From: Eubacteriales bacterium
Lineage (GTDB): Bacteria > Bacillota > Clostridia > Oscillospirales > CAG-272
Length of the DNA: 56,491 nt
Direction of reading: 5' to 3'
Assembly (NCBI GenBank): GCA_045588715.1
Contig: JAZNEQ010000151.1
Span: 1-56,491, forward strand
The notes under the pieces are model-generated. The model had not been told where the DNA came from. It saw only the letters and a list, made by a program, of their open reading frames with translations, and searched no databases. Every line of letters starts with the position of its first letter. The first letter of the stretch is position 1. Of the stretch, positions 3,852-48,400 are shown piece after piece. The position numbers were made by a program, and so were the translations under genes.

Positions 3852-3880
3852 TTGAAAAAAGAGGAAGAAAATGCTATAAT
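3852..3880 (+). promoter_or_regulatory. Sigma-A type promoter ahead of the TetR-led lipid operon
   Basis: TTGAAA (3852-3857), a 17-nt spacer, then TATAAT (3875-3880). Confidence 0.55.
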
Positions 3881-3931
3881 ATCAGTAAAGTCGGCAGATA
3901 TAAAAAATGACGATGGAAAGGAGGGATTCTT

Positions 3932-4522
3932 GTGTCACAGCTTACGAAAAAAGCAATCGTGGAGGCAACGCTGACGTTGGCGCAGAGCAAATCAATTTCA
4001 AAGATCACGGTGCGCGATATTGTAGAGCTTTGCGGCATTACGAGAAATACCTTCTATTATCATTTCCATGATATCTACGAGGTCCTTGAGGATATGATCG
4101 ATGCAAAATTCGATGCCTTGGAGGGAACGTGGGGAACCGATCCTCAAAATGCGATATACGAGTTGCGATCGTTTTTAAATGAACATAGAAAGATCCTTTT
4201 TAATCTTTATCGGGCAATCGGACACGAGACGTTGGAAAATTATCTGCTGCATCGTCTGCATGCCATTATAATGGAGATTTTATACGCTGAAAACGTGCAT
4301 TACGGTGTGCCTCTTACAAAGTTAGAGCTGATTGCCGACTTTTACGCGCAGGCGTTTACGGGACAGTTTTTAAAAAGGATGAAAACCGAAGGGGAGGACT
4401 TTTTTACCGATGCCGCAGAGCTTGATGAAATTTTCAGCGGGATTTTTGCATACTGCCTCGGCAACTGTAAGGGACTGTCCAAGAGCGATTCCCAAACGCT
4501 GGAAAAAAATGTAAAACCGTAA
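3932..4522 (+). CDS. TetR/AcrR family transcriptional regulator (DhaS-like subgroup)
   Basis: GTG start after GGAAAGGAGGG. The N-terminal HTH reads ITVRDIVELCGITRNTFYYHFHDIYEVLE, which resembles the dihydroxyacetone-kinase-regulator type of TetR protein. Confidence 0.75.
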   Translation: MSQLTKKAIVEATLTLAQSKSISKITVRDIVELCGITRNTFYYHFHDIYEVLEDMIDAKFDALEGTWGTDPQNAIYELRSFLNEHRKILFNLYRAIGHETLENYLLHRLHAIIMEILYAENVHYGVPLTKLELIADFYAQAFTGQFLKRMKTEGEDFFTDAAELDEIFSGIFAYCLGNCKGLSKSDSQTLEKNVKP

Positions 4523-4641
4523 TACATTTAAAAGAGAATGCCCAAAAAACAGACATTTGCTTTGATTTGTCTATGGATTTTGGGATTGTCATTTGATACA
4601 ATTACGCTGATGATTTGTGATCAGCAGAAAGGAGAATCAAT

Positions 4642-5238
4642 ATGAACGAGCATTTCGATGTAAAGCCCAACAGTGCCGTTGTGAAAAGTGCCAAGATCAT
4701 GCATCTTTGCTCCTCGGTCATTTTTTTGATCGCGGGTCTTTTGATCGCGCTTATTCCCAATTTTGATGATTTTGATTTTTTTGGAACGATCGTTGTCGGT
4801 GTTGCAAGTATCATTATCGGGGTTACGGGAATTTACGGCTATTTTTCAAACGATATGTACCGTTTGGCATTTCAATCGGATTTTGCTTTGGGGATCTTTA
4901 ACGTTATCCTTGGTATTTTGCTGATCATCAAACCGGTACAGCTTCCCGTTCTTTTGCCAACGGCAATCTCTATTTTGACGTTGCTTGACGGCGGAAACAA
5001 ATCTCAGATCGCAATTGAAGGACAACGCTTTGGAATCCGCAAGTGGTATCTTGTGGTCTTTTCTGCGCTTCTTGAAATCGCGGCGGGAATTGTTTTGATC
5101 GTTTTGGCATATCACAGTATGGACGTTCGCATTTGGATGGGTGTTGCTATGGGTATTGTTGGCGTTACCAATTTTTGGACGACCATGTATACCGTCCGTA
5201 TTCGGGAAAATCATCAATTTTTGACAAATAAAAATTGA
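4642..5238 (+). CDS. Multi-pass membrane protein, HdeD/DUF308-like, function unknown
   Basis: RBS AAAGGAGAA. The 198-aa product has about 6 Gly-rich hydrophobic segments. The family assignment is tentative. Confidence 0.55.
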   Translation: MNEHFDVKPNSAVVKSAKIMHLCSSVIFLIAGLLIALIPNFDDFDFFGTIVVGVASIIIGVTGIYGYFSNDMYRLAFQSDFALGIFNVILGILLIIKPVQLPVLLPTAISILTLLDGGNKSQIAIEGQRFGIRKWYLVVFSALLEIAAGIVLIVLAYHSMDVRIWMGVAMGIVGVTNFWTTMYTVRIRENHQFLTNKN

Positions 5239-5248
5239 GGAAAATGAC

Positions 5249-6148
5249 ATGAGAAGAATTCAAGTGCTTACCGATTCTTGTTCCGATCTTTCGGGAGAGC
5301 TTCTTTTGAAGTACGGTATTGATTACTGCCGCATGAACACCGTACAAAACGAGGAGGAAACTCCGGCATCTCTTTTGTGGGAATACTATACTCCGCACGA
5401 GCTGTATGAGCTCATGCGTGCGGGGGAGCGAGTAAAAACCACGCAGGTTCCCCCCGCCGAATTTACAAGGGTGTTTACAAAGTATATAGAGGAGGGCTGC
5501 GATATCCTTTATGTCGGATGCTCCTCCAAGCAATCGGGTTCTGTGAACACTGCGACTGTAATTGCAAAAAAACTGAAGGAAACCTACCCGGATGCCAGTA
5601 TCCTTTGCGTTGATTCTCTCAACGCAAGTATGGGAGAGGGGCTTTTGGCGATCCGTGCGGCGGAGCTGGCAAGTGAGGGACTTCCTTTAGAAGATGTCTA
5701 TAATACGGTTCTTTCTCTTCGAAATTGCGTTAATCAATACGTAACCGTGCATTCCTTGCGTGCGCTTGAGCGCGCGGGGCGTGTGACGGCAAGTGCCGCT
5801 TTTTTGGGGAACCTTATGGGGGTCAAGCCGATTTTGATCTCCGACGCAGACGGAGTGCAGACCCCTATCAAAAAGACAAAAGGGCGCATGAATTCCTTTA
5901 AGGAAATCGTAGAACTGCTCGCAGGTTCGATTACGGACCCAACAACACAAACTGTATATATTGCGCATGCGGATTGTGCCGAAGCAGAGCTTGAGGAAAT
6001 GAAGCGTTTGATCAAGGCAAAAATTCCTTGCCGTGATATCGTATGCGTTTACATCGGCCCCATCATCGGTGCCAGCATTGGTCCCGATGCGATCGGGATT
6101 TGGGCGTTCGGTAACGAGGTTACCTACCGCGTAAGCGAGGTGAAATGA
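5249..6148 (+). CDS. fakB: DegV family fatty-acid-binding protein (FakB-type)
   Basis: 299 aa. The N-terminus IQVLTDSCSDLS is typical of DegV. Its stop overlaps the next start (ATGA at 6145-6148). Confidence 0.8.
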   Translation: MRRIQVLTDSCSDLSGELLLKYGIDYCRMNTVQNEEETPASLLWEYYTPHELYELMRAGERVKTTQVPPAEFTRVFTKYIEEGCDILYVGCSSKQSGSVNTATVIAKKLKETYPDASILCVDSLNASMGEGLLAIRAAELASEGLPLEDVYNTVLSLRNCVNQYVTVHSLRALERAGRVTASAAFLGNLMGVKPILISDADGVQTPIKKTKGRMNSFKEIVELLAGSITDPTTQTVYIAHADCAEAELEEMKRLIKAKIPCRDIVCVYIGPIIGASIGPDAIGIWAFGNEVTYRVSEVK

Positions 6149-7806
6149 TGGGAAGAACTTCGATCAACGGTTTTTTGTGGGCGGATATGGTTGCCGCCGG
6201 CGGCGGAAATCTTCATGCACACGTGGATGAAGTCAATGATCTCAACGTTTTTCCGATTCCCGACGGAGATACGGGCGAAAATATGATGCTGACGATGCAG
6301 GGCGGTGTTAAGGTGGCCGGGCAGGCAGATGCATCGCTTTGCGATACGGCAGCGCGGATCTCTGACGGGATGCTGCTTAGTGCACGCGGAAATTCCGGGG
6401 TGATCCTCTCTCAGTTTTTCGCAGGAATAGCGGAGGGCTTTCAGGCATGTAGCGAGGCCGACGTTCACGCCTTAGAAAAGGCAGTCGATCGCGGTGTTGG
6501 ATGTGCCTTTGAATCGGTCGTAACCCCCACAGAAGGAACGATCCTTACCGTTATGCGTGATGCCGCAAGGTACGCGGCAAATACCAATCCCAAAACGGTA
6601 GAGGAGTATTTTGACGCATTTATAGGAGAAGCACAGCGTTCGTTGGATCATACCCCCGAGCTTCTTCCCATTCTTCGCGAGGCCGGCGTCGTTGATTCGG
6701 GCGGCGCGGGATTGCTTTACATTGTAAAGGGGATGTATGCGTATCTCTGTGGCGAGGAGATCGCGAAGTCGGATGTCGGCTCTTTTGCAAGTGCGGCGGC
6801 GGTGGACCCAAATCTGTTTGATGAGAATAGCATTATGGAATTTGGGTATTGCACAGAGTTGTTGCTGCGCCTCCAAAATTGCAAGGTGGACACCGCTTGC
6901 TTTGACGCTGAGGTGATCACGGAATACCTCAACAGCGTGGGAGATTCGGTGGTGCTTGTGAAAAACGGCACTGTCGTGAAGCTGCACGTGCATACCATGA
7001 CCCCGTATAAGGTGCTTGAATTTTGTCAGCGCTTTGGGGAATTTCTCACCGTGAAAATAGAAAATATGATGCTCCAGCATAACGGCACCGCTAAAAAGGA
7101 GGACCCTGCTCCCACAGCGGTACAGGCAAATGCCGAGGTGCGCCAACGTTTTTCGGTCGTAACGGTTGCTACGGGCGAGGGGATTCAAAATGCCTTTCTT
7201 GAAATGGGCGCCGACGAGGTGATTCGCGGTGGGCAGACAATGAACCCCAGTGCCGAGGATTTTTTACAGGCATTTGATCGTGTGAATGCAGACGTTGTGT
7301 TCGTATTGCCTAACAATGGTAACGTTTTGCTTGCCGCTCGTCAAGCGGCACAGCTTTACCAAAAAAGCGACGTTCGCGTGGTTCCGACGCATTCGATCGG
7401 TGATGGATATGCTGTCCTTTCCATGCTGGATTTTGATAGCGGAGATCCCGATGCGATCGAAGCAGAAATGAACGCGGCGATGGAAGGCGTCCTTACCGCT
7501 GAAATTTCAAAAAGCATAAGAGATGCCGAAATAAACGGCATAAAAATTAAAAAGGACGACTATATCGGTATCGAAGGAAAGAGGATTTTGGCCTCGGGTC
7601 AGAGTCGCGAGGAGGTGACGTGCCGTACGGCAGATGCACTTGATCTTTCTTCACACTCTCTTCTCTTGCTCATCCGCGGCGACGGCGTAGATGAAAAGAA
7701 TTCCGCACCGATCGTATCTTATCTTCAAAGCAAATATCCCCTTGCTGAAATTTGCGAGGCGGATGGCGGTCAGGATATTTACGAGTATATTCTGGTTGCC
7801 GAATAA
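6145..7806 (+). CDS. fakA: DAK2-domain protein, YloV/FakA-type fatty acid kinase
   Basis: 553 aa, the length of YloV/FakA. It carries the DAK2 motif NVFPIPDGDTGENM and is translationally coupled to the DegV gene. Confidence 0.75.
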   Translation: MMGRTSINGFLWADMVAAGGGNLHAHVDEVNDLNVFPIPDGDTGENMMLTMQGGVKVAGQADASLCDTAARISDGMLLSARGNSGVILSQFFAGIAEGFQACSEADVHALEKAVDRGVGCAFESVVTPTEGTILTVMRDAARYAANTNPKTVEEYFDAFIGEAQRSLDHTPELLPILREAGVVDSGGAGLLYIVKGMYAYLCGEEIAKSDVGSFASAAAVDPNLFDENSIMEFGYCTELLLRLQNCKVDTACFDAEVITEYLNSVGDSVVLVKNGTVVKLHVHTMTPYKVLEFCQRFGEFLTVKIENMMLQHNGTAKKEDPAPTAVQANAEVRQRFSVVTVATGEGIQNAFLEMGADEVIRGGQTMNPSAEDFLQAFDRVNADVVFVLPNNGNVLLAARQAAQLYQKSDVRVVPTHSIGDGYAVLSMLDFDSGDPDAIEAEMNAAMEGVLTAEISKSIRDAEINGIKIKKDDYIGIEGKRILASGQSREEVTCRTADALDLSSHSLLLLIRGDGVDEKNSAPIVSYLQSKYPLAEICEADGGQDIYEYILVAE

Positions 7807-7833
7807 TTCAAAATTCATGAAAGAAGGTCTTTT

Positions 7834-9141
7834 ATGACGAAGAGAAAAAATACAGCTTCGTCTTCCCATGTGTTTTCACCTCCGGAATTTACCAAAGAAA
7901 TGAAGTCCACGCACAAGATCTTAGCTCCCGATATTTTTCCTGTGCATATGGAGCTGATCAAGCTGATCTTCCGTATGTACGGCTATGATCTTGAGATTTT
8001 GAAGAGCCGCGGAAAAAAGGTAGTTGACAAGGGGTTGGAATTTATTCATAACGACATGTGTTACCCTGCGATCTGTATCAGCGGCCAACAGCTTTATGCC
8101 CTGACAAGCGGGGAATACGATCCGCACAAATGTGCGCTGATCCAGTTTCAAACCGGTGGCGGTTGCCGCGCATCCAACTACATCTGGTTGCTCAGAAAAG
8201 CACTTCACAATATGGGAATGGATTACGTTCCCGTTATTTCCTTAAGCTTTACGGGAATGGAGAAGGCAAGCGGATTTAAGATCACCCCCATGATGATTGC
8301 AAAGGCGATGGTAGCGATCATTTACGGAGATATGCTGATGCTGTTGCGCAATCAAGTGCGACCGTATGAAGTCAATGCGGGAGACTCTCAAAGAGTGATC
8401 GATCATTGGTATGCCGAATTGGCAGAACAATTCAAACACAATAAGGGGCTGTTTGGGAAGGCGTTGCGTAAAAATCTGCGCGCCATTGCCAAGGATTTTC
8501 ACGATATCCCGAAAAGGAATGAAAAAAAGACACGGGTCGGCATCGTTGGAGAGATCTACGTAAAATATTCCCCCTTTGGAAACAATGGCCTTGAAGAATT
8601 TTTAGACACGCAGGGGTGTGAATATATGGTCCCGGGTGTGCTTGGCTTTTTCCAATTTATGTTTGATAACAAGCAAACTGACTATCGCTTGTACGGTAAA
8701 AGCTTTAAAGCTGCGTTTGTTTCAAAAGGTGGGAGTGCCCTGACCGATCGGATCGAACGTATTTTTGTGGAGGTGCTTAGCGAATTCCCGGAATTTGTTA
8801 CGCCTACCTCCTTTAAAAATATACGCGCGTTGGGCGACAAGATCATTGGGCGCGGTGTAAAAATGGGCGAGGGATGGCTTTTGCCCGCAGAGGTGGCAGA
8901 GCTGATCGAAAAAGGATATAGCAACGTTATTTGTGCACAGCCCTTTGGCTGCCTTCCTAACCACGTGGTGGGAAAGGGGACGATCCGCACCTTGCGTGAG
9001 ATGTATCCAAATGCGAATATTTGTCCCATCGATTATGATGCGGGCGCTTCTCACGTCAATCAAGAAAACCGTATTAAGCTGATGCTGGCATTGGCAAGGG
9101 ACGGGGAATCCTCCAAAACCGAAAGCGGGGTGGCACAATGA
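7834..9141 (+). CDS. 2-hydroxyacyl-CoA dehydratase (HAD/BCR) family subunit-like protein (DUF2229-type); candidate plasmalogen synthase component
   Basis: 435 aa. Conserved Cys contexts are NDMCYPAICISGQ, QTGGGCRASNY and CAQPFGCLPNH. Its stop overlaps the next start (ATGA at 9138-9141). Confidence 0.7.
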   Translation: MTKRKNTASSSHVFSPPEFTKEMKSTHKILAPDIFPVHMELIKLIFRMYGYDLEILKSRGKKVVDKGLEFIHNDMCYPAICISGQQLYALTSGEYDPHKCALIQFQTGGGCRASNYIWLLRKALHNMGMDYVPVISLSFTGMEKASGFKITPMMIAKAMVAIIYGDMLMLLRNQVRPYEVNAGDSQRVIDHWYAELAEQFKHNKGLFGKALRKNLRAIAKDFHDIPKRNEKKTRVGIVGEIYVKYSPFGNNGLEEFLDTQGCEYMVPGVLGFFQFMFDNKQTDYRLYGKSFKAAFVSKGGSALTDRIERIFVEVLSEFPEFVTPTSFKNIRALGDKIIGRGVKMGEGWLLPAEVAELIEKGYSNVICAQPFGCLPNHVVGKGTIRTLREMYPNANICPIDYDAGASHVNQENRIKLMLALARDGESSKTESGVAQ

Positions 9142-12068
9142 AACGGCTCGGGATCGATATTGGCTCCACGACGATCAAATGCGTGTTGTTTGACGAAGCA
9201 GGAGCGTTGGTCTATAAAAGCTATGAGCGGCACAAATCCAAAATCTCTGAGAAAATGGCAGAGGTTTTGCGTACGGTGGATAAGCTCTACCCAAAGGAAA
9301 AGATGCTTCTTTCGGTGTCCGGATCTGCCGGTATGGGGCTTGCTACAGACATGGAGCTGCCCTTTGTGCAAGAGGTTTATGCCACACGCATTGCCGTAAA
9401 GGAACGGTTTCCCAAAACCGATGCGGTGATTGAGCTCGGCGGTGAAGATGCGAAGATCCTCTTTCTTTCAGGAGGAATGGAAATACGAATGAATGGCACG
9501 TGTGCCGGCGGCACAGGTGCGTTTATCGATCAAATGGCGGAATTGATGAACGTTTCCTCCGATGAAATGGATCTGTTGGCGCAAAAGCGTGAAAAAATCT
9601 ATACCATTGCATCGCGTTGCGGTGTGTTTGCAAAATCCGACGTGCAGCCGCTTTTGAATCAAGGAGCGCGCAAGGAGGATATCGCGGGAAGTATTCTTTA
9701 CGCAGTCGTCAACCAAACGGTAGGAGGCTTGGCACAGGGCAGACGCATCGAAGGAAACGTGCTCTATCTGGGTGGTCCCTTGACCTTTTTCGGATGTCTT
9801 CGCGCGGCATTTGACGACGTGCTGGGTATTGTGGGGCAGTGCCCCGAAAATTCTCTTTACTTTGTAGCGATGGGCGCGGCATATTCTTTGGAAGCACGTG
9901 AGGTTGATCTTTGCGGTCTTGCAGAGCGTGTGGAGGGGTATACTTCCTCTCATTCTTATCACGGGTGTGCTCCGCTCTTTTCTTCAAAGGATGCGTTTTA
10001 TAATTTCGTCAAAAGACACGAGGCAGATTCTGCGGGGATCTGTACCTTGCAAGCTCCCGCAAAGGAAATGTACCTTGGAATTGATGCGGGATCTACGACG
10101 GTAAAGGCAGTGCTGTGTGACGGAGAGGGGAATCTTTTTCGCACACTCTACACGCCAAACAGCGGAAATCCTGTACCGCTGATCAAGAAGTATCTTGAGG
10201 AGCTCTATCGCGATTACCCCGATGTTCACATTGTGAGCGCGGCGGCAACAGGATACGGCGAGCAGATCATCAAAAGCGCCTTCCATATTGATTACGGAAT
10301 TGTGGAAACGATCGCGCACTATACGGCAGCAAAGCATTTTTGCCCCGACGTGGATTTTATTTTGGATATTGGGGGGCAAGATATTAAATGTTTCCGGATC
10401 AAAAACGGTGCGATCGATAATATCTTTTTAAATGAAGCATGCTCCTCGGGTTGCGGTTCTTTTCTTCAAACCTTTGCGGCAGTGCTTGGATATTCCGTTA
10501 AGGAGTTTTCACAGCTTGCGCTTTTCGCCGATGCTCCCGTGGATCTTGGCTCAAGATGTACCGTTTTTATGAATAGCTCTGTCAAGCAAGCACAAAAGGA
10601 CGGTGCGAGCATTGAGAATATTTCGGCAGGACTTTCTATCAGTGTTGTAAAAAACGCATTGTACAAGGTGATCCGTTGTGCCGATCCCGCACAGCTTGGA
10701 AAAAAGATCGTTGTGCAAGGGGGAACTTTCCTCAATGATGCCGTGCTCCGCGCTTTTGAAATGGAGACCGGCAGAGAGGTACTTCGTCCCTCGGTCGCCG
10801 GCTTGATGGGGGCCTACGGTGCCGCACTTTACGCCAAGGAAATGTCGCGGGTGGGGCAAAAAAGCAGTATTGTTACCGCTTCCGATCTTGCGAACTTTTC
10901 ACACGACGTTAAAGCGCTTACCTGTAAGGGATGTAACAATCGTTGCCGTTTGACGGTAAATACCTTTTCTACGGGCGAAAAATACATTGCGGGGAATCGG
11001 TGTGAGCGTCCCTTAGAGCGTAAAAGCGAGCTGAAAAGATACGATCTTTATGAAGATAAGCTTGCTTTATTGTCGACTTATAGGAAAAACGAGCGTATCG
11101 AGGGGAGACCGACCGTGGGAATCCCGATGGGCTTGAATATGTATGAGTTACTTCCGTTCTGGCATACGTTTTTTACCAATCTTGGATATAACGTGATCGT
11201 TTCGGGGGACTCCAACCACAAGCTTTATCTCAAGGGACAGCATACCATTCCGTCGGATACTGTGTGTTATCCCGCAAAGCTTATGCATGGTCACGTGGAG
11301 GACCTTATCTCGCGCGGCGTGGATATGATCTTTTATCCCAGTATGACCTACAACGTCGATGAGGGGTTGGGTGTGAATCATTACAACTGTCCTGTGGTTG
11401 CTTACTATCCTGCTTTGCTTAAAGGCAACGTGCAATTCCCCAAGGAGATCCCGTTCGTCAACGGCTTTGTGGGACTCCACGATCCCGGGCTGTTTGTCAA
11501 ATATTTTGTTCGCATGATGGGAGAATACGGAATCGTTCTTAAGTCGGGTGCGGTCAAAAAAGCGGCAGACGTTGCTTACGGTGCCTACCGTTCGTATATG
11601 CAACGGATCAAGGCATTAGGCGATGAATATCTTGAAATCGCCAAGCGTGAGGGGAGGCGCGTGATCGTGCTTTCCGGGCGCCCTTATCACGTGGATCCCG
11701 AGATCAATCACGGCATTCACCGCTTGATTACCGACATGGGGGCTATCGTTGTGACCGAGGACTCCGTCGCATATCGCGAGGGAGCGATCAAAACCACTGT
11801 GCTGAATCAATGGACCTATCATTCGCGCTTATACAGTGCAGCGGGTTACGTTGCAAAATGCAAGGATCTTAAAATTGACTTGGTGCAGCTTGTTTCCTTT
11901 GGTTGCGGAGTTGATGCTGTGACAACAGATGAGACGCGCGCGATTATTGAAAGCGCGGGAAAGCTTTATACCCAGATCAAGATCGATGAAATCACCAATT
12001 TAGGAGCGGTTAAAATTCGTCTGCGCAGTCTTTTTGCTGTGCTGGACAAGGAAAAAGGAAGGAATTAA
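9138..12068 (+). CDS. BcrAD/BadFG-type double ATPase (activase) fused to a HAD-like domain; candidate plasmalogen synthase component
   Basis: 976 aa. It has two acetate/sugar-kinase-fold ATPase modules (GIDIGSTTIK...NGTCAGGTGAFIDQ and GIDAGSTTVK...NEACSSGCGSFLQ). A CKGCNNRC...GNRCERP cluster follows. The C-terminal HAD-like half carries DTVCYPAKL, YNCPVVAYYP and VSFGCGVDA. Confidence 0.75.
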   Translation: MKRLGIDIGSTTIKCVLFDEAGALVYKSYERHKSKISEKMAEVLRTVDKLYPKEKMLLSVSGSAGMGLATDMELPFVQEVYATRIAVKERFPKTDAVIELGGEDAKILFLSGGMEIRMNGTCAGGTGAFIDQMAELMNVSSDEMDLLAQKREKIYTIASRCGVFAKSDVQPLLNQGARKEDIAGSILYAVVNQTVGGLAQGRRIEGNVLYLGGPLTFFGCLRAAFDDVLGIVGQCPENSLYFVAMGAAYSLEAREVDLCGLAERVEGYTSSHSYHGCAPLFSSKDAFYNFVKRHEADSAGICTLQAPAKEMYLGIDAGSTTVKAVLCDGEGNLFRTLYTPNSGNPVPLIKKYLEELYRDYPDVHIVSAAATGYGEQIIKSAFHIDYGIVETIAHYTAAKHFCPDVDFILDIGGQDIKCFRIKNGAIDNIFLNEACSSGCGSFLQTFAAVLGYSVKEFSQLALFADAPVDLGSRCTVFMNSSVKQAQKDGASIENISAGLSISVVKNALYKVIRCADPAQLGKKIVVQGGTFLNDAVLRAFEMETGREVLRPSVAGLMGAYGAALYAKEMSRVGQKSSIVTASDLANFSHDVKALTCKGCNNRCRLTVNTFSTGEKYIAGNRCERPLERKSELKRYDLYEDKLALLSTYRKNERIEGRPTVGIPMGLNMYELLPFWHTFFTNLGYNVIVSGDSNHKLYLKGQHTIPSDTVCYPAKLMHGHVEDLISRGVDMIFYPSMTYNVDEGLGVNHYNCPVVAYYPALLKGNVQFPKEIPFVNGFVGLHDPGLFVKYFVRMMGEYGIVLKSGAVKKAADVAYGAYRSYMQRIKALGDEYLEIAKREGRRVIVLSGRPYHVDPEINHGIHRLITDMGAIVVTEDSVAYREGAIKTTVLNQWTYHSRLYSAAGYVAKCKDLKIDLVQLVSFGCGVDAVTTDETRAIIESAGKLYTQIKIDEITNLGAVKIRLRSLFAVLDKEKGRN

Positions 12069-12070
12069 CT

Positions 12071-12709
12071 ATGTCAACAGAATTTATTGTACTCTCTGTG
12101 ATCGCAGCACTGACCGCATATCTCTTGGGAGGAATCAACGGTGCGATGATTCTTTCCAGGCTGGTTTATCACGAAGACATAAGAACAAAAGGAAGTGGGA
12201 ACCCCGGCTTTACCAATTTTAAGCGTGTGCACGGTTTTTGTCCCGCAACTTTTGCAGCAATGGCAATCGACATTTTAAAAACCGTTATTCCTGTACTTAC
12301 CTACATGCTTCTGTTTGGACATTTCTTTGAAAATGGGCAGTTTGGTGCCGTTTTCACGCTTTTGTTCTGTATGCTGGGGCATTGCTTCCCGGTTTGGTAC
12401 AAATTCAAGGGTGGCAAGGCGGTGCTGGCTTACCTTTCAGGAATTTGGTTTGTAGACTGGAAAATGGGTCTTATCTGTTTTGGGATTTTTGTCGTCATTC
12501 TTTTGACGATCAAATACATGTCCCTGGCATCTATGACCTTTGCTTTTACAAGCCCGATCGTCCTATTCCTTTTGGGATGCAGGGATTGGTTGGTTCTTGT
12601 GACTGCCGCCATTCTCTCTATTCTCGTTATCGCTCGCCATCATCAAAATATCGTTCGCCTTTGCAAGGGAACGGAATCAAAGTTTACCCTCAAAAGTAAA
12701 AAGGCATAA
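12071..12709 (+). CDS. plsY: Acyl-phosphate:glycerol-3-phosphate acyltransferase PlsY
   Basis: The 212-aa membrane protein carries the motif TKGSGNPGFTNFKRVHG and starts 2 nt after the previous stop. Confidence 0.88.
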   Translation: MSTEFIVLSVIAALTAYLLGGINGAMILSRLVYHEDIRTKGSGNPGFTNFKRVHGFCPATFAAMAIDILKTVIPVLTYMLLFGHFFENGQFGAVFTLLFCMLGHCFPVWYKFKGGKAVLAYLSGIWFVDWKMGLICFGIFVVILLTIKYMSLASMTFAFTSPIVLFLLGCRDWLVLVTAAILSILVIARHHQNIVRLCKGTESKFTLKSKKA

Positions 12710-12747
12710 AAAAATCGGCGCTTGTTTTTGCAAGCGCCGATTTTTTT
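12708..12747. terminator. Bidirectional terminator (end of lipid operon and of the convergent MBL gene)
   Basis: ATCGGCGCTTG (12714-12724) pairs with CAAGCGCCGAT (12731-12741), flanked by A7 and T7. Confidence 0.8.
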
Positions 12748-12753
12748 ATCTCA

Positions 12754-13437
12754 TCAGAGATCGATCTCCTCGTAGATCCTTGGGGTGACCTTTGCGGGAT
12801 GAACAAATTTTTCGTCTGTGAGCGAATCAAACATTCCAATGTGGTAAGGAACGGCATATTTGGCTCCTGTGCGGAGGGCAAAGCGCGAGGCATCTGCCAT
12901 GTTCATATTGTTGCCCTTGCCGTTGCAGGGAAGAAAGATCGCGTGCAGCTCCTTTTTGGGAAGGGAAGCGAGTACACGTTCGCTATACAGCGTATCTCCC
13001 GTAACGTAATAGCTTTTTCCCTCTGCCGACAGGATCACGCCAATGGCGTAAGGGTCGGAGTGCTCTGCGGCTACCGCGTGGATACGTACGTTTCCCTCGG
13101 TCCACTTCGTTCCTGCATTGAATAGAATATAGTTGCATTTTGTATTGGGATAGGTTTTGCGCAGGTCGGCATATCCTCCCGTGGGGCAAAAGACCAGTGC
13201 CTTCGACTCCTCTGTCAAATAGTGCTTTAAGGTTTCGTGATCCAAATGATCCAAGTGGTTGTGCGTGATCACGATCATATCGGGGGAGATCTTTAAAAAA
13301 CGCTCATCTACAGGAACGCGCCGTGCGTTTTGCGGTTCAAAATTTTTAACGTTGTCCGAAAGGTAGGGGTCGATTACGATTTTTTTGCCGTCCGTTTCAA
13401 ACAAAAGTCCGGCTTGCCCTAAGTAAGTGATCTTCAT
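12754..13437 (-). CDS. MBL-fold metallo-hydrolase
   Basis: 227 aa with the HxHxDH motif ITHNHLDHLDH. Confidence 0.75.
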   Translation of the reverse strand: MKITYLGQAGLLFETDGKKIVIDPYLSDNVKNFEPQNARRVPVDERFLKISPDMIVITHNHLDHLDHETLKHYLTEESKALVFCPTGGYADLRKTYPNTKCNYILFNAGTKWTEGNVRIHAVAAEHSDPYAIGVILSAEGKSYYVTGDTLYSERVLASLPKKELHAIFLPCNGKGNNMNMADASRFALRTGAKYAVPYHIGMFDSLTDEKFVHPAKVTPRIYEEIDL

Positions 13438-13440
13438 TGT

Positions 13441-14247
13441 TTACTCCTTTTCGTAGGTCGTGTTCCGATAGGGGGTTCCGATAAATGCAACTTGACGAAA
13501 ATCTTCAAAGTTGTGGCGAATGACGTAATCAATGTATGCGGCAACCAATTTTGCGGTGTAGATATAACCGATGGGGCTCATATGACCGCCAAGAAAAAAG
13601 GTGTCGCGGAATTCTTGGTCGTAATCGGGGGCATATTTGCGAAGGTCCAAAACGTAACAGTTGGAAAAAAGGTCGGCGAGCTGATAAAAAAGATCGGCTT
13701 GTCGGTCGGTCTGCGCGCACTTGAATTTTGCATCGTCGGCGGTCTCATAGGGCATGGTCATTAAAAAGAACTTTGCGTCGGGTTGGATCTCCTTATAGCG
13801 TTGGATGATCTTTGCGTAGTGCCCCGCATAGGTGTCTTTGTTTAGTCTCCAGTCCGCTACACATACGTCCTCAATGCTTCCCACCTCACCGCGACGGCAG
13901 ATCAGGTCGTTTACACCCAAGGCGATAATGTAGCACTGTGCGGCGTATTCTCGGTTCCAATAGCCGTGCGCGTCGGCAAAGCGGTCACAATATTCCTTTG
14001 CGGTCATGCCCCCGCATGAAAAATTGTAAACGCGACTTGCGCACATGCGTCCCAAATACTGTCCCCAGGAATATTCGTAAAAATCATGAAAGCCCTTGCC
14101 GCCATCGGGCTTTGTGCTTTCCATTTCTCCGGAGGAAAGGCTGTCACCTACACATGCAATGGTACGGAAAATGCCACAGTAACCACCGTCGAAGGGGATG
14201 TTGTCAAGTGGCTTTTCATTGGGATCAGGACATAAAAAACGATTCAT
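13441..14247 (-). CDS. SGNH/GDSL-type hydrolase
   Basis: I take the start at 14247 (MNRFLCPD..., GGAGA plus 6 nt). Block I reads ACVGDSLSSGE. Confidence 0.7.
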   Translation of the reverse strand: MNRFLCPDPNEKPLDNIPFDGGYCGIFRTIACVGDSLSSGEMESTKPDGGKGFHDFYEYSWGQYLGRMCASRVYNFSCGGMTAKEYCDRFADAHGYWNREYAAQCYIIALGVNDLICRRGEVGSIEDVCVADWRLNKDTYAGHYAKIIQRYKEIQPDAKFFLMTMPYETADDAKFKCAQTDRQADLFYQLADLFSNCYVLDLRKYAPDYDQEFRDTFFLGGHMSPIGYIYTAKLVAAYIDYVIRHNFEDFRQVAFIGTPYRNTTYEKE

Positions 14248-14367
14248 AGTTGTCTCCTTGAAAGAAATAGATGCAGGCGAGCACATGGGTGCCACCTGCA
14301 TTTATTTTACCATATATCGGTGGATTTGTCGATAGAAAAATGAAAAAAACAGGGGCGCTTTACGTTT

Positions 14368-20037: not shown

Positions 20038-21627
20038 ATGCTGTTTACGTCTGCTTCGTTTGTTCTTTTTGCGTGCATCACGCTTCTTTTATATTTTCTG
20101 GTGCCCAAAAAGCTGCAATGGTGGGTTCTTTTGGGGGCAAGCCTTGCATTTTATGCCCTTTGCGGCGTGGAATATATCTTTTTTATTCTCTATACCGCAA
20201 CGGTTACCTACGTAGCCGCGCTGCTTTTGCAAAAGCGAGCGGACGGCGAGGACGCCTATATAGAGGCACACCGTGCGGACATGGATAAAACAGAGCGGAA
20301 GGCATATCGCGCAAGAGAAAAGAAAAAAAGATTCCGTATTTTGTTGGCGGGGCTTTTTTTGGGACTTGGTATGCTTGCCGTTTTGAAATATACCGCTTTT
20401 GTTTTAAACGGTGTATCCTCGGTGGTGACCGCCTTTGGGGGAGAGGGAATCGCGATCCCTTCCTTGATCTTGCCGTTGGGGATTTCCTTTTACACCTTTC
20501 AATCGATGGGATACCTCATCGACGTTTACCGAAAAAAGGCAACTGCCGAGCGAAATTACGGAAAGCTTTTGCTTTTCGTATCCTTCTTTCCGCAATTGCT
20601 CCAAGGACCGATCAGCCGCTTTGATTCCTTGCACGATCAATTGATCACACCGCATCGCTTCCACGCATTTTCCTTCCGTGCGGGGCTTTTGCGGGTCATG
20701 TGGGGATATTTTAAAAAGCTTTTGATGGCAGATACCGCAATGATCGGCATCAAGCTTCTCATTGCCGATCCGGAGAAATACGGTGGAATTTACGTGTTTC
20801 TTCTCATTCTCTTGTATTCCGCGCAGATTTACGGCGATTTTACGGGTGGGATCGACATTACGATAGGCCTTTGCGAAATGATGGGGATTCGACTGGTTGA
20901 AAACTTCAACCATCCCTTTTCCTCAAAATCTACCAAGGAATACTGGAACCGCTGGCACATTACCATGGGCGCATGGTTTACCGATTACGTGTTTTACCCC
21001 TTGTCGGTCTGCCGTCCGATGCAACGCTTTTCTTTGTTTTCTACCAAAAAATTCGGCAAGGCATTAGGGCTTCGCTTACCCGTTTACGTTGCAACGGTTG
21101 TCACTTGGTTTTTAACGGGGCTTTGGCATGGCGCGGGCTGGAATTTTATCGTATGGGGGCTTCTTAACTGCCTTGTGATCTTGGTTTCACGTGAGTTGGA
21201 GCCGCTTTACCGTGCTTTTCACAAAAAATTCCCACGCCTTGCTTCTTCCTCTGTGTGGGGGGGCTGGTGTGCAGTTCGTACCTTCCTGCTCATGGGACTT
21301 ATTCGCTCTCTTGACTGTTACCGTGACGTTTCTACCACCTTTTCACAGTGGGGGAGCATGATCACCCGCTTCAATATCGGGGAGCTGTTTGCCGGGGGGA
21401 TTACTTCCTTTGGTCTTACGTATTTCGATTTTGGTGTGATCCTTCTCTCTGTACTCACGGTGTTTCTTGTCAGCCGCGCGGGAAAAGAGGAGCCGGTGCG
21501 TCACCGTGTGGCATCGCGCCCGATTTTGTGGTGCTTCCTTGTCTGCTTGCTCTTCGTAGTTGTTTTGGTGTTCGGGGCATACGGCATTGGATATGACGCA
21601 TCGCAATTTATCTATTCGCAATTCTGA
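20038..21627 (+). CDS. MBOAT family membrane O-acyltransferase (DltB/AlgI-like)
   Basis: 529-aa polytopic protein. The conserved His context is FLTGLWHGAGWNF. The region LPLGISFYTFQSMGYLIDVYR is typical of AlgI/DltB. Confidence 0.85.
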   Translation: MLFTSASFVLFACITLLLYFLVPKKLQWWVLLGASLAFYALCGVEYIFFILYTATVTYVAALLLQKRADGEDAYIEAHRADMDKTERKAYRAREKKKRFRILLAGLFLGLGMLAVLKYTAFVLNGVSSVVTAFGGEGIAIPSLILPLGISFYTFQSMGYLIDVYRKKATAERNYGKLLLFVSFFPQLLQGPISRFDSLHDQLITPHRFHAFSFRAGLLRVMWGYFKKLLMADTAMIGIKLLIADPEKYGGIYVFLLILLYSAQIYGDFTGGIDITIGLCEMMGIRLVENFNHPFSSKSTKEYWNRWHITMGAWFTDYVFYPLSVCRPMQRFSLFSTKKFGKALGLRLPVYVATVVTWFLTGLWHGAGWNFIVWGLLNCLVILVSRELEPLYRAFHKKFPRLASSSVWGGWCAVRTFLLMGLIRSLDCYRDVSTTFSQWGSMITRFNIGELFAGGITSFGLTYFDFGVILLSVLTVFLVSRAGKEEPVRHRVASRPILWCFLVCLLFVVVLVFGAYGIGYDASQFIYSQF

Positions 21628-44801: not shown

Positions 44802-45362
44802 ATGGCACATCCTTTTTTGCATCTGAAAACCATTACGCGCCACCGCCATCGGGTGATTGCACATTGCTTTCGCGCGGGAATTGGTTTTCAAGGGCTTTTT
44901 CACGATCTTTCCAAATATTCGCCTACGGAATTTATTCCGGGGGCTCGCCACTATATTGGGACAAGAAGCCCCAACGAGGGGGAACGGGAGGTGCTTGGAT
45001 ATTCTCTTGCATGGATGCATCATAAGGGAAGAAATCGGCATCATTTCGAGTATTGGAACGATCTCAATCCAAAATCCAAAATGTACGAGCCTGTCAAAAT
45101 GCCCATACGCTTTGTAAAGGAAATGTTTTGCGACCGTGTTGCCGCCAGCAAGATTTATAAGGGGAAGGAATATACCGATACAATGCCGCTTGAGTATTTT
45201 TTACGCGGAAACGCGCGAAAGAAAATGCACGCGGATACCGCAGATCTTTTGGAGGAGTGGCTGACCCTCCTTGCCGAAAAGGGGGAAGAGGCGGCTTTTG
45301 CGCATTTGCGAACTCTTCCAAACGATGCGTCTTACGGAAAAGAGGAGAAAGCAGAGGAGTGA
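44802..45362 (+). CDS. His-rich HD-like protein of unknown function (DUF5662-like)
   Basis: ATG at 44802. The 186-aa product carries RHRHRVIAHC, GLFHDLSKY and WMHHKGRNRHHFEYW. Confidence 0.5.
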   Translation: MAHPFLHLKTITRHRHRVIAHCFRAGIGFQGLFHDLSKYSPTEFIPGARHYIGTRSPNEGEREVLGYSLAWMHHKGRNRHHFEYWNDLNPKSKMYEPVKMPIRFVKEMFCDRVAASKIYKGKEYTDTMPLEYFLRGNARKKMHADTADLLEEWLTLLAEKGEEAAFAHLRTLPNDASYGKEEKAEE

Positions 45363-45408
45363 TCTGCTTCGTTGCATCAAATATTACGTTCTACAAAGGA
45401 GAGCAAAA

Positions 45409-48400
45409 ATGGATTTCAAAACAAAACGCTTTGTTGCCCGCATGACTTGCGTGCTTGCACTGATCGGTATGCTTTTTGTTGCCTCCTGTGCTCAACCGCC
45501 CGAAGAGGACGGCGGGGAAACGGGAAGTGAAAGCAGCTGCGTGCACGAGATGGGGAATTACGTTGCCAACAACGATGCTGACTGTCAGCATAACATGACC
45601 GAAACGGCGACGTGCTCCAAATGCGGCGAAAAGGATACGCGCGAGCTTGCGAATTCCAAAAATCCAGCCGTCCACACTTCCGAGGAAGTAAAGTATCGGG
45701 AAAACGGCACGGATGCCAATAAGCACGATAAGTATCATGCTTGTTGCCAAGCCATTATCGAAACGGTAGATCATCGCTACGGAGAGGGTGTATCGGATAC
45801 GGAAAACGCGGGTGTTACCGTTTATATCTGTGCCGATTGCGGCGCGGTGAAAAAAACACATGATGGCGCGCATACCCACAAGGCAATACTGGTAGACGCT
45901 ACCCCTGCGGGGTGCACTGCGTTCGGTAATATCGAATATTGGTATTGCGCAGGATGCGATACCCGCTTTGCGGACGGGACCTTGACGACGATCTTGTCCA
46001 AGGAGGATGTGCGCGTCTCTCCCTCGCACAAGGGTGGAACGGCAACCTGTACGGCAGCAGCGGTCTGCACCGCTTGTGGAGAAGCCTACGGGTCTCTCGA
46101 TCCCGAAAACCATGCAAGCGCCTCTTTTGAATACGTCGAAATGTCGACAGATGACGAAAAGCACGAGCGGCGTCACGCCTGCTGTCATACGGTCGTTTCT
46201 ACGGAGGTGCACACGTGGAACAACGGAACTGTCAACGGAGACGTAACCGTTTACACGTGTACCAAATGCGGTAAGGAAAAACGCGAGGCGAATGCTCTTC
46301 ACGTGCATACAAGTACTCATGTCTTGCCCAAGGCGGCAACCTGCACCGAGGAGGGGAATATCGAATACTGGCACTGTGCGGCGTGCGGTAAATACTTCTC
46401 CGATGAAGCACTTACGCAAGAGGTGAGTGCTGCTTCGGTCAAAACAGATCCCGCACACACCTCCACCGAATTTACTTATGCCCCCAATGCGATCGATCCC
46501 GAGCGGCACGATAAAAAGCACGCTTGCTGCGGAACGGTCGTCGAAACGTTGGCACATGCCTACGAGTCTGCAGGCAGCTTTGTGGCAAGCTGCGAGGAAA
46601 ACGGATATACACTTTATCAATGCGTGTGCGGAGAAAGCTATCGGGAATTTACCGCACCCGCTACGGGACACAACGTCGAGCTTTGGAGCTTAACGCTTGA
46701 ATCTCCCAAAACGGGGGCTGATTGCACCTATTTGCAGACCTTTGAGGGTGAATGTTTCTTCTGTGGAGAGGAGCTTGAAAAAACGACCGAGACGGTGCGC
46801 CACAGATATGCGGCAACCGTTGTGACCCAGCCTACCTGTCAGTCGGCAGGCAGCAAGAGCTATGCTTGCTCTTGCGGAGCTAAGCCCACGCCCGATACGG
46901 TTTCCATTCCCAAAAATCCCCATGCACACACGTGGGAAGCGGGAACCACCGAAAACGGCGTTACGACCTATCGGTGTGAAAACTGCACAGCTTCCAAAAC
47001 CTCGGTCGTTTCTCTTGATACACAGGCACAGCTTGACAAAACGCAACTGAACGGAAACGAGATCGTTCTTGGCGACGTTGCCTTGACGCTGGACAATACC
47101 GTACTGGGGCTTATTGATGATAACGGTGACGTTACGCTGTCCGCTGCCCCCGTTACCGAGGGACGCGCGGAGCTTGTCAGCTCTTTGCCGGAGGCGCTTC
47201 GCGCACAGATCACAGATAGCACTCCCATTTATGATTTTTCACTTTCGCAAGGTGGCAATGCCATTTCGAATTTTGAAGAGGGAAGAGTTACCGTTACCAT
47301 TCCCTATACACTCCCTAACGATGCCGATGCCGATCGCGTTGCCGTTTGGTACGTTTCGGCACAAGGCTTGAAATTTTATGCGGCATCCTATTACGGGATC
47401 GGTGAGAATGGCTTTGTAACCTTTGAAGCCGAGCACTTCTCGGTCTACCTTCCCGGAATTGCGCCCGCCGACGAAGCGTGTGCGCTTTACGGGCACAATT
47501 ATACCACAAGCATCACCTCTCCCACCTGCGTTGAGCCGGGGTACACCGAGTATCATTGCCAGCGTTGCTCCCACAGTAAATTGGACGATATTCTGACTGC
47601 ACTTGGACACGCGTACAGTGCGGGGAACGAAACGCCCTCCACTTGCCTTGTCCCCGGAGAGAGAACCTATTCCTGTGCGCGCGATGATTGTGATCATACC
47701 TACAGAAAAACGCTTCCGCTTGCCGCGCATACCTTTGTAAAGGACACAGAGGAAAGTGTAGAAAAGACCTGTACCGAGGATGGACTTGACGTTTACAAAT
47801 GCTCGGTTGCAGGTTGTAACGGCGAAAAGCGCGAAACGCTTACGGCATACGGGCACGATCTTTACGAGGTGTCTATCGGACTTGCCGAAGGCGCACAGAG
47901 CTGTCACGACGGCGTTGCCATCGGCAAAAAATGCCGCAACTGTGATCATACCGAGACCGAGATCTTAACGGGCACTCATGTCGATTACGAAAAATACATG
48001 ACGCCCGAATGTACGTACCCGAGCCACACGGACGAATACGTTTATCTTGGTAGTTATCTTACGGCGGCGGGGATCGCTTACGATGAAGAGCCTTATCTTG
48101 CAATGACGCCGGGATGCGTATGCGGCGAACTTTATCGTTCGGTGAGAATGGAAAACCGCGGTATGGCGTACGGCATGGAGTTGTTCAACGATTTTGTGGA
48201 ATTCAGCCATATGAGCTTTTTTGAGGAAACAAGGGTGCTGACCGCAACGTCAATGCCGATGGGAGGTCCCGGAATGCCCGGCTACACCGAGCCCTCGTCC
48301 TACAGCATTTGCTTTGACGCAAAGATCGTAAAAGGTGAGGGCTGCCACACTACCTTCCGGCTTACGCTTAAGCTTGGGTATAACGAAGCGTCGGGAGAAT

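Follow-up and report, generated by a model that had tools for sequence, protein, structure and literature searches.

The window, which here means the whole 56,491-nucleotide stretch of DNA that was analysed, probably carries a TetR-controlled membrane-lipid operon of an uncultured gut bacterium of the Oscillospirales (Clostridia), which groups three activities concerned with the sn-1 chain, plasmalogen synthesis included. The operon is built by seven open reading frames on the forward strand, which encode, in this order, a TetR-family regulator, a DUF308/HdeD-like membrane protein, FakB, FakA, PlsR (435 aa), PlsA (976 aa) and PlsY, and their content, order and coordinates are exactly those given by a sequence-only reading of the same DNA. 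All parts belong to known families and, as far as the literature was searched, it is the arrangement that is new. The Oscillospirales placement is that of the clade and was taken from the MAG names of relatives.

The seven-gene unit is cleanly delimited, since the flanking genes, an EamA gene upstream and an MBL-fold hydrolase gene downstream, lie on the opposite strand. A gap of 119 nt, read from the sequence, separates the TetR and DUF308 genes. The junctions that follow are a gap of 10 nt (DUF308-fakB), an ATGA overlap at 6145-6148 (fakB/fakA), a gap of 27 nt (fakA-plsR), an ATGA overlap at 9138-9141 (plsR/plsA) and a gap of 2 nt (plsA-plsY), and each of these five was re-read identically to the sequence-only reading. 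A purine-rich ribosome-binding site precedes each of the seven starts. The unit is not split internally: its six structural genes follow one another closely, no internal terminator was found within the seven genes, and the sole likely internal promoter lies behind the TetR gene and ahead of the structural genes, as is usual when a TetR controls an operon. The operon genes are probably co-transcribed, and the promoter-like element behind the regulator gene means that the regulator may be transcribed apart from the six structural genes.

PlsR and PlsA carry the assignment to plasmalogen synthesis. The PlsR homologue (7834..9141, + strand) is a putative second reductase/dehydratase-like subunit, and the PlsA homologue (9138..12068, + strand) has two BcrAD/BadFG ATPase "activator" domains, a Cys-rich linker and a DUF2229 reductase domain. 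PlsA matches PF01869 in two stretches and PF09989 (DUF2229) with 243 bits, the same pattern as the PlsA of Clostridium perfringens, whose plsA-plsR genes (CPE1194/CPE1195) are reported to encode an anaerobic plasmalogen synthase (Jackson et al. 2021, cited in PMC12838417 and PMC9702350). The C. perfringens reference pair was located with a primer published for the cloning of plsA (PMC12838417 Table S6), and in this locus (L011) the stretch from the primer match through the stop of plsR measures 4199 bp, exactly the length of the fragment cloned in PMC12838417. The window PlsA is 53% identical to the C. perfringens PlsA over 980 columns (1058 bits) and the window PlsR is 48% identical to its counterpart over 407 residues, both end to end. 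These identities are in the same range as those of lactic-acid-bacterium homologues against C. perfringens (PlsA 48-55%, PlsR 41-42%), some of which yielded plasmalogen on expression in E. coli (PMC12838417). Thirteen cysteines of PlsA are invariant across 67 homologues, C. perfringens included, and all are present in the window protein, while Cys 76, 111, 367 and 373 of PlsR are invariant in 12 diverse sequences; the conserved cysteines of both proteins, which are the same as in the C. perfringens pair, may ligate iron-sulfur clusters. Judged by this sequence evidence, the 435/976-aa pair is orthologous to the validated PlsR/PlsA, as had been proposed from the sequence alone.

The fold of PlsR is consistent with this superfamily. 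Its AF2 model has a pLDDT of 81.7 and a pTM of 0.85, and the top eight PDB fold matches of the model are HadC (3o3m_D), DCCP (7yyl, 6eno) and BzdNO (8s02, 8s2r), with probabilities of 0.98-1.00 and TM of 0.33-0.48, followed by a sharp drop. This likeness is remote and suggests a HAD/BCR/DCCP catalytic-subunit fold for the modelled protein. A search of the PDB with the PlsR sequence gave no useful match, and the cluster members of ten representatives provided no link to a characterised organism.

The window and the C. perfringens systems are both split into two genes, with a PlsA built by two BcrAD_BadFG domains and DUF2229 and a HAD-like PlsR with a weak DUF2229 match, but they differ in organization. 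In the window, plsR precedes plsA, with which it overlaps by 4 nt, instead of following it as expected, so the proposed PlsA-PlsR architecture stands for the homology and is reversed in its order; the swapped order is a descriptive and not a functional feature. The window pair is also enclosed by fakBA and plsY in a TetR-headed operon, whereas the C. perfringens pair is flanked by a radical-SAM gene and a two-component system and has no lipid genes, fak and plsY included, as neighbours. Fused PlsA proteins, such as those of Enterococcus faecalis (EF1327), Lactococcus cremoris and Bifidobacterium, have the same four modules, Act1-Act2-Red1-Red2, as the window pair. In fused homologues of 1409-1437 aa, the first ~985 aa align with the window PlsA and the last ~410 aa with the window PlsR, the latter part at 38-42% identity. 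Compared with the fused PlsA of facultative anaerobes, the window proteins are split and permuted.

Another product of the same chemistry has to be weighed here. Ger, the glycerol ester reductase of Thermotoga maritima (Tmari_0479) and Desulfatibacillum alkenivorans, is homologous to PlsA, shares its BBD core and acts without oxygen on the sn-1 ester of glycerolipids to give saturated alkyl ethers (PMC13159169), and a Ger-type enzyme in the window would make saturated 1-O-alkyl ethers, or a mixture, with the operon logic otherwise the same. PlsA and Ger cannot currently be told apart by primary sequence, and two activation domains, which the window PlsA has, were suggested to correlate with alkyl-ether production (PMC13274423); against this, the validated C. 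perfringens PlsA shows the same two-stretch PF01869 pattern. Validated Gers are single fused polypeptides with small HGD-D matches in the C-terminal part (PMC13159169), whereas the window pair is split like the C. perfringens pair and shares its Pfam signature, with no HGD-D (PF06050) match in either window protein or in the C. perfringens PlsR even at E <= 5. Ger is set apart here by its published description, and a Ger-type activity of the window pair is considered unlikely.

The genes on both sides of plsR-plsA encode the putative activation and transfer of fatty acids. FakB (5249..6148, + strand, 299 aa), the predicted DegV-family fatty-acid-binding subunit, matches PF02645 with 197 bits and TIGR00762 (DegV) with 217 bits against a cut-off of 99.7. 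FakA (6145..7806, + strand, 553 aa), the predicted kinase subunit, has the Dak2, FakA-like_M and FakA-like_C domains and reaches 517 bits with TIGR03599 (YloV subfamily; cut-off 396). The cut-offs of the S. aureus FakA and FakB1 equivalogs are missed by both proteins (NF038248, 435 bits against 975; NF038249, 124 bits against 350). The operon FakA is 45-60% identical to the FakAs of other variants of the operon but just 33% identical to the Asp23-linked FakA of L110 (33-36% for its paralogue group), and both types coexist in one relative, L110. The low identity and this coexistence rule out that the operon FakA is simply a housekeeping gene. By sequence comparison, it is a member of a distinct second-type paralogue group, linked to plsY, so that the FakB-FakA pair holds at the level of domain families, with a kinase of a separate kind.

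PlsY (12071..12709, + strand, 212 aa), the predicted acyl-phosphate:glycerol-3-phosphate sn-1 acyltransferase, matches PF02660 with 148 bits and passes the equivalog model TIGR00023 with 143 bits, just above the cut-off of 137.2, which bears out its earlier naming. About six hydrophobic segments indicate a polytopic membrane topology. PlsY orthologues are the last gene in every operon variant that contains them. In model Firmicutes, fakA lies beside asp23 (yloU-yloV) and plsY lies at another location. The window shares with the FakA/FakB-PlsX-PlsY pathway, described as the route of exogenous fatty-acid incorporation in Firmicutes (Parsons et al. 2014, as cited in PMC13400652), the families of the DegV-type FakB and the three-domain FakA, which together make acyl-phosphate, and of the PlsY that consumes it; it differs in that a divergent FakA paralogue and FakB are encoded in one operon with plsY.

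The coupling of fak, pls and plsY genes is conserved beyond a single genome. The full seven-gene operon is found in the same order and with different flanks in at least four other lineages, L099, L100, L101/L108 and L022, whose PlsA proteins are 85%, 78%, 74% and 60% identical to that of the window, respectively, and a six-gene version is present in L001 (PlsA 67% identical). Shorter versions are TetR-DUF308-PlsY in L106, at the same EamA-flanked site, TetR-FakB-FakA-PlsY in L110, where plsRA is missing, TetR-PlsR-PlsA-PlsY in L020, where fak is missing, and TetR-PlsR-PlsA in L002. The constant frame of this nested series is TetR ... PlsY. Further phospholipid genes are recruited to the cluster in relatives: the L022 operon contains a CDP-alcohol phosphatidyltransferase gene, and in L101 PssA-like and PSD genes are transcribed divergently from TetR. 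In about 70 canonical plsA-plsR loci, no gene for PlsY, FakA or DUF308 lies up to 10 kb away, which, together with the C. perfringens locus, confines the linkage to one swapped-order Oscillospirales clade, which is monophyletic and nested within canonical-order Oscillospirales sequences in a neighbour-joining tree drawn without support values. The linkage is facultative, since many members of this clade, such as L002, L004, L005, L102 and L104, have plsR-plsA without fak or plsY.

These clade members, the limitation of the linkage to one clade and the ability of PlsA/PlsR to function alone in E. coli, as reported in PMC12838417, would also fit a co-location without pathway meaning, in which plsRA came to lie beside plsY by chance, in a phospholipid operon of the housekeeping kind or through a neutral rearrangement in one lineage. 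Chance is improbable, because the same seven genes recur in order, down to 60% PlsA identity, while the flanks change completely. The subsets also recur on their own, plsRA-plsY without fak in L020 and fakBA-plsY without plsRA in L110. The separate FakA paralogue that coexists with the Asp23-linked type, the junctions that overlap or span only few nucleotides and the additional lipid genes of L022 and L101 argue in the same direction. A true fermentative 2-hydroxyacyl-CoA dehydratase, whose activator is fused and whose substrate is a CoA thioester, is a hardly credible reading of the pair and already contradicted: public annotations name homologues "2-hydroxyacyl-CoA dehydratase", the ATPase domains match the HgdC and HadI activators and HadC is among the nearest folds of the PlsR model, but PF06050 is absent, PlsA joins two activator domains and a DUF2229 domain in one chain, the HadC likeness is remote (13% identity, TM 0.43-0.48), the neighbours are lipid genes with no CoA-transferase or fermentation genes nearby, and the full-length homology to a validated plasmalogen synthase keeps the pair apart from true dehydratases.

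A TetR of the TetR_C_8 type heads each operon variant (L001, L002, L020, L022, L099-L101, L106, L108 and L110). The window protein (3932..4522, + strand, 196 aa) has TetR_N and TetR_C_8 domains, and of its earlier description as DhaS-like only these domains stand: with 62 bits against a cut-off of 129 it does not pass the DhaS equivalog model TIGR02366, and it shares with DhaS only the TetR_C_8 ligand-domain family. The regulator may sense a lipid-related ligand. Oscillospirales are strict anaerobes. In E. faecalis, a TetR/AcrR gene (EF1326) lies directly upstream of the PlsA gene EF1327, and according to a review strict anaerobes lack such an upstream TetR (PMC9702350). The window and E. faecalis are alike here by family and position and, contrary to the literature, TetR genes ahead of pls genes are not confined to facultative anaerobes.

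The second gene (4642..5238, + strand) encodes a predicted integral membrane protein of 198 aa with about 5-6 hydrophobic helices by hydropathy and a PF03729 match of 31.9 bits (cut-off 25). This protein had been left without a role; its orthologue, 70% identical, lies directly between TetR and PlsY in L106/L107, and this placement ties the DUF308 gene primarily to PlsY. A partnership with plsR-plsA was considered and rejected, since the true orthologue adjoins plsY (L106) and the 163-aa "DUF308 (faint)" proteins of L005 and L102, whose genes come before the pair and had prompted the idea, have no significant similarity to the window protein.

The signals that frame the operon agree with those seen before. 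A sigma-70-type promoter with TTGAAA, a 17-nt spacer and TG-n-TATAAT lies upstream of the TetR gene (3852..3880, + strand); it has an extended -10, scores 11/12 and ranks first in a 12-kb scan, and both of its hexamers are kept in two related genomes, L099 and L100. In the TetR-DUF308 gap, the extended -10-like element TGATACAAT (4594..4602, + strand) is followed by the palindrome GCTGAT-N8-ATCAGC (4606..4625, + strand), a candidate operator, and both form a candidate internal promoter/operator (4594..4625) of the six structural genes. The -10-like TAnAAT and the upstream TG are kept in the window, L099, L100 and L101, and the palindrome in the window, L099 and L100. The same gap contains a conserved 19-mer, AATGCCCAAAAAACAGACA (4537..4555, + strand), a candidate regulatory site that is found at the equivalent position in L099, L100 and L101 with 0-3 mismatches and has no second match at <=3 mismatches in the 56-kb window. 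A common TetR operator was rejected for this 19-mer, as it is absent from the TetR-proximal gaps of L001, L002, L020 and L022 and is thus specific to the closest relatives. The strong terminator after plsY (12706..12749, either strand) combines a stem of 19 bp with A- and T-tracts, has a folding energy of -30.2 kcal/mol, at z -8.5 relative to shuffled sequences, and is additionally bidirectional, being common to the operon and the convergent MBL-fold gene.

In the proposed mechanism, the enzymes would have the activities of their families. FakB would bind a free fatty acid, which the dedicated FakA paralogue would phosphorylate to acyl-phosphate, and PlsY would move the acyl group from acyl-phosphate to the sn-1 position of glycerol-3-phosphate. 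PlsC, CdsA and head-group enzymes encoded elsewhere would complete the lipid before the last step, in which PlsR/PlsA, an iron-sulfur enzyme driven by ATP and belonging to the benzoyl-CoA-reductase/2-hydroxyacyl-CoA-dehydratase superfamily, would reduce and dehydrate the sn-1 ester to the vinyl ether of a plasmalogen. The DUF308 protein would be a small polytopic membrane partner, tied first to PlsY. The linkage may serve to bring scavenged fatty acids to the sn-1 position, where the alkenyl chain would later be formed. In contrast to the self-contained module of the sequence-only reading, the operon lacks PlsC, CdsA and the head-group enzymes, and current evidence has PlsA/PlsR acting on diacyl lipids. 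PlsA/PlsR alone are reported to suffice for plasmalogen formation in E. coli (Jackson 2021, as cited in PMC12838417), so the enzyme need not depend biochemically on Fak or PlsY.

A closer coupling is possible but doubtful, in which this second-type Fak, PlsY and PlsR/PlsA would form a membrane assembly, maybe organised by DUF308, that takes scavenged fatty acids through acyl-phosphate to 1-acyl-glycerol-3-phosphate and forms the vinyl ether at the lyso-PA/PA stage. If so, alkenyl chains would derive specifically from exogenous fatty acids, and TetR would sense exogenous fatty acids or their acyl-phosphates.

The genes of the anaerobic plasmalogen synthase have been known only since 2021 (Jackson et al., as cited in PMC12838417 and PMC9702350). 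The literature search, with the original 2021 plsA-plsR paper outside the comparison, found no paper that links plasmalogen synthesis genes to fatty acid kinase, PlsY or DegV, in line with the earlier belief that the coupling was undescribed, and found no settled account of the in vivo substrate, the regulation or the sn-1 chain choice of PlsA/PlsR. The repeated position of plsR-plsA between a fatty-acid-activating pair and the sn-1-installing enzyme is a testable hint on the origin of plasmalogen chains. It raises the questions of whether the operon kinase sets the alkenyl chains, whether lyso-PA or PA is a substrate of PlsR/PlsA and which ligand TetR binds. The operon also defines a second, plsY-linked FakA paralogue group and gives the first lipid-synthesis context for DUF308/HdeD-like proteins. 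Plasmalogens of gut anaerobes are linked to host effects (e.g. PMC10076029), which gives practical interest to taxa that couple dietary fatty acids to plasmalogen synthesis, and the metagenomic matches of the clade come largely from gut and rumen samples.

All seven open reading frames that the sequence-only reading placed on the forward strand are found at its coordinates, and they span positions 3932 to 12709. TetR and DUF308 are separated by a gap of 119 nt, and the next five junctions are exactly as it had given them: gaps of 10, 27 and 2 nt, alternating with ATGA overlaps at 6145-6148 and 9138-9141. The promoter it proposed at 3852-3880 is the top-scoring site of the scan and is kept in two relatives, and the strong terminator is present at 12706-12749 (dG -30.2 kcal/mol, z = -8.5). 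The operon is flanked on the opposite strand by unrelated genes, an EamA transporter on one side and an MBL-fold hydrolase and a GDSL lipase on the other, and the rest of the window carries ordinary chromosomal genes, among them those for enolase, PheT and sugar-acid functions.

Pfam and NCBIfam also support the protein families assigned to the seven products. The TetR product matches TetR_N and TetR_C_8, the second product matches DUF308 and the third, FakB, matches DegV. FakA contains Dak2, FakA-like_M and FakA-like_C and scores 517 bits for the YloV subfamily (cut-off 396). The 435-aa protein has a weak DUF2229 match alone, the 976-aa protein has two BcrAD_BadFG ATPase stretches and DUF2229, and PlsY is matched by TIGR00023 (143 bits, cut-off 137.2). 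Every part of the operon is a known family.

Table S6 of PMC12838417 gives the cloning primers for the Clostridium perfringens plsA-plsR pair, and this reference was recovered via the plsA forward primer, whose 22 gene-specific bases matched 11 metagenome contigs. In contig L011, 4199 bp separate the primer site from the stop codon of the second gene, exactly the fragment size given for the CPE1194/CPE1195 clone that makes plasmalogen in E. coli (PMC12838417), so the L011 pair is identified as C. perfringens plsA-plsR. The comparison proposed in the sequence-only reading gives 53% identity for the 976-aa protein and PlsA (980 columns, 1058 bits) and 48% for the 435-aa protein and PlsR (407 residues). 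Homologues from lactic acid bacteria, some of them functionally confirmed, are 48-55% (PlsA) and 41-42% (PlsR) identical to those of C. perfringens (PMC12838417).

The window and C. perfringens pairs have the same Pfam signature, including the weak N-terminal DUF2229 match of PlsR, and neither has an HGD-D match at E <= 5. Fused homologues of 1409-1437 aa align with the 976-aa protein over their N-terminal ~985 residues and with the 435-aa protein over their C-terminal ~410. The window proteins have all 13 cysteines that are invariant across 67 PlsA sequences and all four that are invariant across 12 diverse PlsR sequences. The only significant PDB neighbours of the PlsR AlphaFold model (pLDDT 81.7) are catalytic subunits of 2-hydroxyisocaproyl-CoA dehydratase, double-cubane cluster protein and the benzoyl-CoA reductase BzdNO, a remote likeness of fold (TM 0.40-0.48). 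Because identity, Pfam signature, coverage of fused homologues, cysteines and fold agree, the 435/976-aa pair is assigned as an orthologue of PlsR and PlsA, of the BCR/HAD superfamily, and its annotation as a putative plasmalogen synthase is solid. The sole structural difference from C. perfringens is the gene order, which is swapped in the window, with plsR upstream of plsA.

Neighbourhoods were collected by exact-protein look-ups and by scanning GTDB species genomes with an alignment of PlsR (80 loci kept of at least 600), and all fetched loci were also scanned by tblastn and HMM with the window proteins. The canonical plsA-plsR order is found in about 70 loci, from Ruminococcus, Acutalibacter, Gemmiger, Intestinimonas, Papillibacter, Christensenellaceae and others, whose PlsR is 46-55% identical to that of the window. 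By tblastn and HMM, none of these has PlsY, FakA or DUF308 within 10 kb, and none of the three is near C. perfringens plsA-plsR. The swapped group, with PlsR at least 62% identical to window PlsR, is monophyletic and nested within canonical Oscillospirales sequences, with C. perfringens far outside, in a neighbour-joining tree that is midpoint-rooted and without support values. Each of the 80 genome loci kept (of at least 600 in the scan) comes from a different assembly, and one pair per genome is weakly suggested for these genomes.

Within the swapped group, the seven-gene form is found in the window, in L099, which has the same flanks (PlsA 85% identical), and with other flanks in L100 (78%), L101/L108 (74%) and L022 (60%). 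L001 has the six-gene form TetR-FakB-FakA-PlsR-PlsA-PlsY (PlsA 67%), L020 has TetR-PlsR-PlsA-PlsY and L002 has TetR-PlsR-PlsA, while in L004, L005, L102 and L104 the pair stands by itself or with an unrelated small membrane protein. In L004 a 13-nt unit, ATGAAACAAATAC, is repeated in tandem about five times upstream of plsR (6495-6684), with no counterpart in the window. L022, a deep-branching relative, has two additional genes, a CDP-alcohol phosphatidyltransferase-VTT/DedA-like fusion between DUF308 and fakB (4245-5519) and, downstream of plsY, a small RelA/SpoT-type synthetase (12878-13576), and all its operon genes are tightly packed. In L101/L108 an operon divergent from TetR (L101 684-3447; L108 1-533) encodes LPG_synthase_TM (lysyl-PG-synthase-like), CDP-alcohol phosphatidyltransferase and PS decarboxylase, which are head-group (PE-type) synthesis genes adjoining the plasmalogen operon.

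Shorter forms were found by a PlsY search and inspection of the contexts of PlsY relatives. L106/L107 have EamA on the opposite strand followed by TetR-DUF308-PlsY and no more genes (L106 6699-9627), with 66% (EamA), 70% (DUF308) and 69% (PlsY) identity to the window, and represent the same chromosomal frame minus the four middle genes. This minimal form occupies the same EamA-flanked site in L106, which suggests that fakB-fakA-plsR-plsA was inserted or lost as a block between DUF308 and plsY. L110/L111 have TetR-DegV-FakA-PlsY, in which fakA overlaps plsY (L110 4736-8639). The constant frame is TetR ... PlsY, with fakBA and plsRA inside it, singly or together.

The Asp23-FakA arrangement (yloU-yloV) is usual in Firmicutes, and L110/L111 carry such a pair about 4 kb from their TetR-DegV-FakA-PlsY operon, on the other strand (L110 12374-14391); the two FakA paralogues of L110 share 36% identity. 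The plsY-linked FakA proteins form their own group, which includes window FakA. As window FakA is only 33% identical to the Asp23-linked type, against 45-60% to every operon-linked FakA, and falls far under the S. aureus FakA equivalog cut-off, it is predicted to be a distinct second-type fatty-acid kinase and more than a housekeeping gene. The window DUF308 protein, with about 5-6 hydrophobic helices, belongs to the TetR ... PlsY frame, adjoining PlsY. A 163-aa protein with a faint DUF308 match immediately precedes plsR-plsA in two separate branches (L005 6096-6587; L102 7077-7568). As it has no significant similarity to window DUF308, it is perhaps a separate small membrane protein that partners the synthase.

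According to PMC13400652, which cites Parsons 2014, FakB presents free fatty acid, FakA phosphorylates it and PlsY moves acyl-phosphate to sn-1 of glycerol-3-phosphate. PMC8788747 and PMC9702350, which summarise Jackson 2021, describe how PlsA/PlsR reduce and dehydrate the sn-1 ester, by low-potential electron transfer driven by ATP, so that a vinyl ether results. In the operon, FakB and FakA would form acyl-phosphate, PlsY would acylate sn-1 and PlsR/PlsA would convert it to the vinyl ether, so that all three activities would act on the sn-1 chain. The module had been called self-contained, which is too strong, since PlsC, CdsA and head-group enzymes are absent from the window operon. The most likely reading, held with good confidence, is that co-regulated genes route scavenged fatty acids into sn-1, with plasmalogen formation keeping pace.

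Physical channelling of the enzymes, with the vinyl ether formed at the lyso-PA/PA stage, is a more novel reading and an unlikely one. Saturated-ether chemistry of the glycerol ester reductase (Ger) type is slightly less plausible still: sequence does not distinguish PlsA from Ger (PMC13274423), but a split pair without HGD-D segments fits PlsA/PlsR better (PMC13159169). Neutral co-location is equally improbable, as recurrence and the nested variants argue against it. A true acyl-CoA dehydratase is rejected: the pair does not group with 2-hydroxyacyl-CoA dehydratases, a placement that could have overturned the sequence-only reading, given its PlsA/PlsR orthology and the missing HGD-D.

The operon is no surprise in kind, but as a clean and conserved genomic lead it bears on which substrate anaerobic plasmalogen synthesis uses and where the chains come from. 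No description of the coupling was found in the literature searched, which does not include Jackson 2021, in line with the earlier remark that none was known. Within that literature, the swapped-order plsR-plsA clade, the dedicated FakA/FakB paralogue pair and the DUF308 membrane protein, each in the TetR ... PlsY frame, are new.

In four species the gap between TetR and DUF308 (4523-4641) shows stronger conservation than the sequence around it, and more than expected of an intergenic region. It contains the 19-mer AATGCCCAAAAAACAGACA (4537-4555), the only match in the window with up to 3 mismatches and absent from more distant variants, an extended -10-like element, TGATACAAT (4594-4602), and the palindrome GCTGAT-N8-ATCAGC (4606-4625), immediately 5' of the ribosome-binding site. 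The gap probably holds a second promoter, with an operator, that would serve the six structural genes. The L101 counterpart of the 19-mer sits inside the loop of a perfect 10-bp hairpin, which is followed by a T run.

A TetR/AcrR gene, EF1326, is directly upstream of pls in E. faecalis and is described in a review as absent from strict anaerobes (PMC9702350). In contrast, the window clade, of Oscillospirales, carries TetR upstream of the pls genes, with a TetR_C_8-type regulator at the head of every operon variant. The fak/plsY context makes a lipid ligand for this TetR seem no less likely than a role in sensing oxygen.

The GDSL-family lipase/acylhydrolase gene just downstream of the operon (13441-14301, reverse strand), with another GDSL lipase near the L106 mini-operon, might supply free fatty acids, or its position may be coincidental. 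Three tRNA genes, at 849-999 and 2646-2716 on the reverse strand (Rfam gathering-score matches), lie upstream of the region. A forward-strand ORF of 1593 aa with a TTG start (45271-50052) gives no Pfam match at E <= 0.001. An MBOAT acyltransferase (20038-21627) is located within about 10 kb of the operon, and in L099 (18868-20347) and L106 (11210-13033) a small PP-binding carrier protein precedes the MBOAT gene, forming a DltB/DltC-like pair; shared synteny is the probable cause.
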